DNA from: Escherichia phage BananaBelafonte
Reading direction: 5' to 3' (one strand)
Sequence record: PP925845.1
Length of the DNA: 51,510 nucleotides
A model generated the notes under the pieces. That model saw only the letters and a list, made by a program, of their open reading frames with translations. It ran no database searches and was not told where the DNA came from. This document shows positions 18,688 to 19,316 of the stretch, in pieces. The position numbers were made by a program, and so were the translations under genes. How positions within the stretch are numbered: the first letter of the stretch is position 1; each line of letters begins with the position of its first letter.

Positions 18688-19005
18688 ATGGCAAAATTTA
18701 AACTCACCCTGGCACCGCTTCCAGATTTTAAACTTCCTGTTAAGTTCACCATGCCGGACGGCAACGAGGGAACGATCCTGTTTACGGTTCGACACCTAAA
18801 AGCAAAAGAAGTGCAAGCGCTCTATGAATCCGAAAACATCGTGACCGATTCCGATTTCATCATGAAACTGGCTACTGGCTGGGATCTGGATGAAGAATTT
18901 AATGCAGAAAATGCTCAAACGCTCGTTGAGTTTTATCCTGGCGCAGCGCTCGCACTGACTGGTGCTTATCTTTCCGCCCTTGCGGGGCAGCGCGTAAAAA
19001 ACTAA
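18688..19005 (+). CDS. tail assembly chaperone (gpG-like)
   Basis: ATG at 18688 after AGGAG; ends VKN-stop at a slippery heptamer; directly upstream of tape measure gene. Confidence 0.6.
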   Translation: MAKFKLTLAPLPDFKLPVKFTMPDGNEGTILFTVRHLKAKEVQALYESENIVTDSDFIMKLATGWDLDEEFNAENAQTLVEFYPGAALALTGAYLSALAGQRVKN

Positions 19006-19316
19006 AAAGGGCGGTTTATCTGTTTTATCAGAAGCCGCCCACAGATGCAGAGCTTGAGGCCGTAGGATTAACCCGCGCCGATTATGAGGACGAGGAGCCG
19101 CCAGAAATTATCTTTGATGAAAATATGATGCAGTCATGGGATATATTTTGCGCTATGCAAACCCAATGGCGCACGGCTGGCGCTGGGGCTTACGGCTTTG
19201 ATTACAATGTTTTGCCTATGTTGTTCAAAATCTATAAAATAGAGGATGAAGAAATGGCATTAAACGACTTGCGAATCATGGAAAGCAAAGCGCTAGAAAT
19301 GATTAACGCTAAGTAA
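18688..19316 (+). CDS. tail assembly chaperone frameshift product (gpGT-like), made by -1 frameshift at 18996-19002
   Basis: Slippery A_AAA_AAC at 18996-19002 in frame with G; the -1 frame is open from the slip site to a stop at 19314-19316; hairpin 19008-19040 lies downstream. Confidence 0.5.

Follow-up and report, generated by a model that had tools for sequence, protein, structure and literature searches.

The tail assembly chaperone locus analysed here is confirmed as the standard programmed -1 frameshift of T1-like phages, a real but ordinary one. Judging from the sequence, we place at about 0.9 the probability that two forms of the chaperone would be produced from one mRNA by programmed -1 ribosomal frameshifting. 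The window, by which we mean the whole stretch of 51,510 nucleotides of DNA that was analysed, comes from a T1-like (Drexlerviridae) phage. The preliminary description of this DNA had assigned the locus to the G/GT type of tail chaperones, and this assignment is supported by the position of the gene, by matches to the Phage_TAC_4 and DUF1799 families, by a -1-frame segment that lacks a start codon, by a heptamer in phase with the gene, and by conservation. The G/GT type is the tail assembly chaperone with a conserved -1 frameshift that was reportedly described by Xu, Hendrix and Duda in 2004; its gene position, -1 overlap, in-phase motif and conservation in diverged relatives are all found at this locus.

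In the map of open reading frames (ORFs), the genes are arranged in the order major tail, G-T and tape measure, followed by genes resembling lambda M, L, K and I (Table 1). The same order is found in T1, TLS, Stevie and KLB26, and the flanking major tail and tape measure genes were also found in W011D. The closest relative, Klebsiella phage vB_KM5a1-KLB26, is 97% identical over positions 17900-19400 and 95.5% identical over 17 kb. We were not able to find a tRNA gene in the window, nor a match to any Rfam family, intron families included, anywhere in it.

Table 1. Positions in the window of the features of the chaperone locus and of its flanks.
Feature	Position	Strand	Basis or remark
Major tail (tube) protein gene	17928-18587	+	ORF map; annotated as tail tube or major tail in KLB26, Stevie, TLS and T1
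Terminator-like hairpin and T run, between the major tail gene and the G-like gene	18592-18610	+	Terminator annotated likewise in T1 and Stevie
Shine-Dalgarno-like AGGAG	18675-18679	+	8 nt upstream of the ATG of the G-like gene; read from sequence
G-like tail assembly (tape measure) chaperone gene, zero frame	18688-19005	+	Translation; Pfam Phage_TAC_4; PHROG 569 and 17368
Overlap in which the zero and -1 frames are both open	18930-19002	+	-1-frame TGA at 18927-18929
Slippery heptamer A_AAA_AAC	18996-19002	+	Lys codon in the P site, Asn codon in the A site
T-like segment, -1 frame	19002-19316	+	104 codons (LKRAVYLFYQKPPT...EMINAK) and TAA at 19314-19316
Zero-frame stop TAA, abutting the heptamer and ending G	19003-19005	+	Read from sequence
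Hairpin, possible frameshift stimulator	19009-19040	+	Predicted fold; starts 6 nt past the heptamer
Terminator-like hairpin and T run, between the T segment and the tape measure gene	19320-19337	+	Terminator annotated likewise in T1 and Stevie
Tape measure protein gene	19361-22042	+	ORF map; annotated as such in relatives

The G-like ORF most likely starts at the ATG at 18688, which is preceded by AGGAG and is the start used in the annotations of relatives. It encodes a protein of 105 amino acids, ending in ...AGQRVKN before the TAA stop, that is homologous to T1 gp40 and TLS tfmA. Membership of a Pfam family was accepted where the score exceeded the curated gathering score (21.1 for Phage_TAC_4 and 26 for DUF1799). 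The G-like protein matches Phage_TAC_4 (PF08748) over its full length (E=1.3e-35, 122.7 bits), and the -1-frame segment matches DUF1799 (PF08809; E=6.7e-13, 49.1 bits); both cut-offs are exceeded, and the two families are those of T1 gp40 and TLS TfmA-TfmB. The 213 positions of PHROG 17368 are matched by G in their first half and by the -1 segment in their second half. This family spans both halves, and such fusion proteins are therefore already present in the databases. A profile search against PDB sequences gave no significant match (best E=0.26), and a single-sequence structure model reached a pLDDT of 49.5 and a pTM of 0.29.

It had been claimed that the G-like ORF ends in VKN-stop exactly at the heptamer, and indeed the zero frame reads CGC GTA AAA AAC TAA, within ...GGG CAG CGC GTA AAA AAC TAA AAA GGG CGG.... 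The heptamer lies in the X_XXY_YYZ phase relative to this frame, and is the sole in-phase motif of this kind in the 73 nt over which the zero and -1 frames overlap. The claims that the -1 frame is open to 19316, and that a GT-type fusion of roughly 209 amino acids would result, also agree with our reading: the frame is open from 18930 to its TAA, and the 105 amino acids of G together with the 104 -1-frame codons make 209. In the +1 frame, just 17 codons are open after the stop.

The string AAAAAAC is in itself unremarkable, as the window contains 14 copies against 22 expected. In-phase X_XXY_YYZ motifs are found at 0.27% of codon positions. The two strands together hold 181 open stretches of 80 codons or more, 2 of which finish on a motif of this kind; of these two, only the G-like ORF continues in the -1 frame for 80 codons or more. 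The decisive evidence against chance is conservation among relatives.

A homologue search with the 209-amino-acid fusion returned four matches; the relatives were taken from tblastn on a phage collection and from locus scans, and their loci were read with a tblastn-anchored script. In all 26 loci whose G proteins are 70-100% identical, AAAAAAC is followed directly by TAA or TGA, and the -1 extension measures 104-106 codons. The heptamer and stop were also found in T1, Sd1, tiwna, grams, Pantoea phage AAS23 and Cronobacter phage ESP2949-1, as well as in the diverged Dhillonvirus JL1 (40% identity), phiES15 (38%) and Aeromonas phage pAEv1818 (31%), and a Ralstonia phage (30% identity) carries G_GGA_AAC and TGA at the homologous place. 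Among 91 distinct G-T DNA sequences, AAAAAAC lies directly against the stop in 65 and GGGAAAC+TGA is found in one, while in 21 (Webervirus, e4/1c-like phages and KPLY1) A_AAA or A_AAG is located one codon upstream of the stop. The remaining four are assemblies that carry A5, not A6; two of them also have other indels, so that sequencing error is the likely cause. The -1 extension is at least 95 codons long in all but these four. The preliminary description had proposed a comparison with the G/GT regions of related phages as a check, and this comparison thus finds a shift-prone motif and an open -1 frame in 87 of 91 sequences. Down to 30% protein identity, relatives retain a shift-prone motif, the relation between the two frames and the length of the extension. 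Lineages differ in the type of motif but not in slipperiness, frame or length, as selection for frameshifting predicts.

We propose that the majority of ribosomes would translate the G-like gene to its TAA and release the 105-amino-acid protein, and that a small fraction would slip by -1 on A_AAA_AAC, with tRNA-Lys re-pairing from AAA to AAA and tRNA-Asn from AAC to AAA. The slip might also take place with the adjoining stop codon occupying the A site. After the slip, ribosomes would read the -1 frame (CTA AAA AGG...) to 19316, giving the 209-amino-acid G-T fusion. Whereas the anatomy of the locus, its families, the coding status of the start-less segment and the conservation are seen in the sequences, the production of the fusion, the ratio of G-T to G, a part in tail assembly and stimulation by the stop or by the downstream hairpin are inferred. 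By analogy with lambda, the N-terminal part shared by both forms would coat the tape measure protein and the T part would recruit the major tail (tube) protein, and neither G nor G-T would be present in the virion.

The heptamer had been called canonical, which holds for its pattern but not for its strength, A_AAA_AAC being weak in E. coli reporters (0.16-0.74%). The reporter values are 0.163% with no stimulator, 0.189% with the IS911 stimulators and 0.739% with the IS3 pseudoknot, and those of A_AAA_AAG are 0.29%, 4.3% and 39%, respectively (Sharma et al. 2014 supplement). In lambda the fusion ratio is roughly 3% (30:1; PMC5009743), well above the A_AAA_AAC values; without help from its context, the site in this phage may thus yield very little fusion. 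That so weak a heptamer is conserved may mean that a very low yield suffices, or that the abutting stop helps. A conserved upstream Shine-Dalgarno-like stimulator of the dnaX type, about 10-14 nt before the heptamer, was not found; we considered GGGG at 18984-18987 (8 nt upstream) as the candidate and rejected it, the Gly codon varying between GGG, GGC, GGT and GGA in relatives.

Downstream of the heptamer, the hairpin noted earlier is present, with the 6-nt spacer given for it. Its description needs some correction, as the GGGCGG arm occupies 19009-19014 instead of starting at 19008, the CCGCCC arm lies at 19035-19040, and the helix is longer than described: 8 pairs (19009-19016 with 19033-19040) are followed by a 2-nt bulge, 4 further pairs (19019-22 with 19029-32) and a 6-nt loop. 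The predicted energy is about -19 to -19.9 kcal/mol. Compared with synonymous recodings that kept the peptide and the codon usage of the phage (mean -9.8, sd 3.1 kcal/mol), the fold has a z of -3.2 and beats about 99.7% of them, and most members of the window's clade likewise beat their recodings. A search by eye for a pseudoknot found no complement ATAAAA to the loop TTTTAT in the 60 nt downstream.

For the hairpin as a frameshift stimulator we see about even odds, and we do not regard it as a defining part of the signal. The scales are just as evenly balanced for the opposing view, in which the heptamer and the -1 frame are real and the hairpin arises only as a consequence of the encoded peptide (R-A-V ... 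P-P) and of shared ancestry. Its arms fall on the codons AGG GCG G and CCG CCC, which encode conserved residues. In an alignment of 24 Drexlerviridae sequences, the fraction of paired cells is 81.9%, versus 80.8% after column shuffling, and we could not find covariation beyond column composition, with just 2 double-sided changes. The stem was lost through uncompensated synonymous changes in the close relatives L011-13, which keep the slip site, and Sd1, 2005IV, AAS23, ESP2949-1 and phiES15 keep AAAAAAC and the stop without a stable fold; in T1 the hairpin is marginal (z=-1.5). Moreover, the gain that stimulators bring to A_AAA_AAC in reporters is small (from 0.16% to 0.19-0.74%). Against a mere by-product, the fold is far more stable in the window's clade than its recodings, it requires AGG or CGG, which are rare codons for Arg (18 of the 93 Arg codons in the structural genes of the window), and its 6-nt spacer is classic. 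In addition, 45 of 55 distinct relatives at 55% identity or more have a fold of -14 kcal/mol or lower, and in L007 and Sd1 an alternative stem is possible at the same start position; the members of the clade, however, are not independent observations, because they share ancestry. The earlier suggestion of a stimulatory structure therefore stands as regards placement and stability, but the stimulatory role is unproven, because the hairpin is restricted to some clades, lacks covariation and has disappeared from relatives in which the slip site persists.

In all 87 intact relatives the zero-frame stop lies 0-3 nt after the shift motif. This stop is under selection, because in relatives it is kept by means of the -1-frame Leu codon CTA, which is rare in enterobacteria (or by CTG or TTA), and because the -1-frame codon that follows always begins with A, despite a residue that varies between K, I, T and R. 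It may be selected either for the C-terminus of G or for helping the shift, and the abutting TAA may act as a 'shifty stop'. A tentative extension of this idea, which we think rather doubtful, is that frameshifting in T1-like phages is coupled to termination, so that the G:GT ratio would be set by the release factor versus tRNA slippage at an empty A site and not by an RNA stimulator, the clade-specific hairpin being an optional booster only. What makes it possible is that the heptamer is weak in E. coli and almost always abuts a stop, at the cost of the rare CTA.

Slippage of the RNA polymerase instead of the ribosome is an unlikely way of joining the two halves. In such a case the polymerase would add one A in the A6 run (18996-19001), which would bring G and T into one frame for a ribosome that does not shift. 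In its favour are the homopolymeric A run at the site, a product (...RVKK-LKR...) that could not be told apart from the TLS and Stevie fusions in GenBank, and the A5 in four public assemblies of relatives, which suggests a run prone to length miscalls or variation. However, the runs that give useful transcriptional slippage in bacteria measure about 8-11, and the A6 found here is shorter, not the conserved long homopolymer (about 8 or more) of such sites. Homologues with G_GGA_AAC, A_AAG GTC and A_AAA GTY have 3-4 A's, which fits the rules of tRNA re-pairing and does not fit polymerase slippage.

No ATG, GTG or TTG occurs in the -1 frame from 18930 until 19125. Over the 41 start-less codons from the G stop to the first ATG, variability among relatives is 0.144, 0.096 and 0.446 at codon positions 1, 2 and 3, a pattern similar to that of the rest of T (0.415 at the third position versus 0.18 and 0.11). 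Since the variation is mainly at third positions, these 41 codons are translated. It is very improbable that T is made alone as a small protein, for example from the ATG at 19125, and that no fusion is needed. A separate DUF1799 ORF of 55-89 amino acids is annotated in many relatives, and ATG codons are present at both 19125 and 19128, but no Shine-Dalgarno-like sequence precedes 19125 (the upstream sequence being ...ATCTTTGATGAAAAT). The start-less codons are moreover conserved as protein and match PHROG 17368 from their first residue, and the position of the first ATG varies among relatives, with annotated ORFs of 48-99 amino acids. The T segment thus appears to be translated only as the C-terminal half of the 209-amino-acid fusion.

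The frameshift is already known, since TLS, Stevie, U136B and KLPN1 annotate a joined product at the homologous site. The records of TLS (tfmS), Stevie and KLPN1 contain joined CDS features. The deposited fusions of TLS (AAR09274.1) and Stevie (AIX12284.1) are identical to our reconstruction through the A-run, with the convention of a K-K junction, and the deposited fusion of U136B is also joined at the homologous A-run; the fusion proteins of U136B, Sazh and LL5 fall in the same cluster as those of TLS and Stevie. Two separate ORFs are annotated in many other records, T1 included, and the window's phage and KLB26 carry no joined annotation. The paper and GenBank record of KLB26 attribute the joining of the halves to removal of an intron (misc_feature 'unable to determine intron boundaries'), a reading that has next to no chance of being right and that we reject, as there is no intervening sequence, the frames overlap and the coding signal is continuous across the junction, no Rfam intron family is matched in the window, and the conserved slippery motif at the junction is not needed by an intron. 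Our literature search brought up no experimental study of the fusion protein in any T1-like phage.

The value of the present analysis lies in annotation: both the window's phage and KLB26 should carry a joined CDS in place of the 'intron' note or the separate ORFs. For the window we propose join(18688..19001,19001..19316), in the GenBank convention used for TLS and Stevie. The biological weight is little, this being one more case of a conserved tail-chaperone frameshift.

Among known systems, the locus resembles TLS tfmA/tfmS, Stevie gp15/16, U136B and T1 gp40/gp39 in its homologous proteins, its gene order and its AAAAAAC with adjoining stop. The G protein is 70-73% identical to those of TLS and Stevie and 60% identical to that of T1. 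These T1-like systems share the -1 extension of 104-106 codons, and there is no difference of substance beyond annotation.

Lambda gpG/gpGT is said to have been the subject of work by Levin, Hendrix and Casjens in 1993 and by Xu, Hendrix and Duda in 2004, 2013 and 2014. As in lambda, the locus lies between the major tail and tape measure genes, a second ORF overlaps G in the -1 frame, and G carries an X_XXY_YYZ heptamer close to its end; a low level of fusion would be expected, with a presumed division of labour between G and T. In lambda, the binding partner of G is the tape measure protein and that of T is the tube protein (PMC5009743). The protein families differ, being Phage_TAC_2 (PF06894) and Phage_tail_T (PF06223) in lambda versus Phage_TAC_4 and DUF1799 here. 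We could not detect a sequence relation to lambda G or T by Pfam, which gave no match to the lambda families, or by an hhalign comparison of the G alignment with gpG (probability 0.1%); in a control, lambda's own proteins do match PF06894 and PF06223. The relation to lambda thus appears to be one of position and function only. The shift sites differ as well: lambda has G_GGA_AAG, an efficient site in E. coli, with the stop 15 nt further on, whereas here the weak A_AAA_AAC is adjacent to its stop.

With E. coli dnaX and the IS911/IS3 type, the locus shares an A-rich heptamer and a stem-loop 5-9 nt downstream (6 nt in this case). Those systems use A_AAA_AAG, in which the cognate tRNA-Lys re-pairs in the A site, and reach 4-50%. 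In dnaX an upstream Shine-Dalgarno-like element is conserved, whereas the upstream GGGG of the window varies freely among relatives. The dnaX, IS911 and IS3 stem-loops are experimentally proven stimulators, while the hairpin described here is not conserved across the family; it is a stable structure at the right distance from the heptamer, and compensatory conservation together with the slip site was not found.

The heptamer itself has precedents. IS1 InsA/InsAB' uses the same A_AAA_AAC in an enterobacterial host, although its gene encodes an unrelated transposase, and there A_AAA_AAC is a proven low-level -1 site with no established stimulator (PMC4066793). The same heptamer is used for g-t in the haloarchaeal virus HCTV-2.

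The window looks like the complete, circularly permuted genome (1-51510) of a Drexlerviridae phage similar to Klebsiella phage vB_KM5a1-KLB26 (KLB26), positions 1-16913 of which match window 8211-25000 at 95.5%. No tRNA genes and no matches to Rfam families were found in window 1-51510. The KLB26 paper treats the locus of G, the zero-frame tail assembly chaperone ORF, and T, its -1-frame extension, as containing an intron, and does likewise for phage KLB19; at the KLB26 locus, the sequence has a frameshift site and lacks an intron.

Some lineages (loci L033, L103-L117, L077-L081, L036 and L038) carry other motifs in place of the slippery heptamer A_AAA_AAC. 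The shift site is displaced by one codon in these lineages, yet the stop is still no more than 3 nt away. Four public assemblies of relatives, among 91 distinct sequences, have GTAAAAACTAA at the slip site, a run of five A residues (A5) rather than six, which shifts T to frame +1/-2 with respect to G. This is likely to be under-calling of the homopolymer, because two of the four have further indels in G and the Citrobacter phage HCF1 record is flagged UNVERIFIED_ASMBLY. A seven-A variant, in which G and T would be permanently fused, was absent from the 91 distinct sequences.

Features of the G-T unit and its relatives
Feature	Position	Sequence or remark
Terminator-like GC hairpin and T run	window 18592-18610	just 3' of major tail gene
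Terminator-like GC hairpin and T run	window 19320-19337	just 3' of T
KLB26 G-T locus	L001 1289-1917 (PP556865 10478-11106)	homologous to window 18688-19316
Klebsiella phage KLPN1	L033 ~1015-1024	heptamer replaced
Webervirus	slip site	A_AAA GTY TAA
e4/1c-like phages	slip site	A_AAG GTC TAA
KPLY1	slip site	A_AAG CGC TAA
Ralstonia phage YO187_2	slip site	G_GGA_AAC TGA
A5 assembly	L075 ~1005-1015	
A5 assembly	L102 ~1005-1015	
A5 assembly	L118	same as L025, Salmonella phage 36, KR296690
A5 assembly	L122	same as L040, Citrobacter phage HCF1, MN545971

The GGGCGG/CCGCCC stem downstream of the heptamer is lost in two relatives, L007 and Shigella phage Sd1 (L030), where an alternative stem is possible (GCGCCGTT or GCGCTGT with AACGG-A-CGC, which lies about 6 nt farther 3'). 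It would begin as far from the slip site as the lost stem does, 6 nt past the heptamer. This stem may be a coincidence, since weak folding energies are predicted for it (-11.8 and -7.4 kcal/mol).

In the mechanical ORF list, GTG 18667 is taken as the start of the G-like ORF; ATG 18688 is accompanied by an AGGAG ribosome binding site and agrees with the starts in most relatives. Phage TLS differs in that its G-like protein is annotated with two additional N-terminal residues (MTMAKMK).

With one terminator-like hairpin right after the major tail gene and another right after T, the G-T unit lies between two putative terminators, which may reduce expression of the chaperone and tape measure relative to the tube protein. 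The units of T1 and Stevie are annotated likewise.
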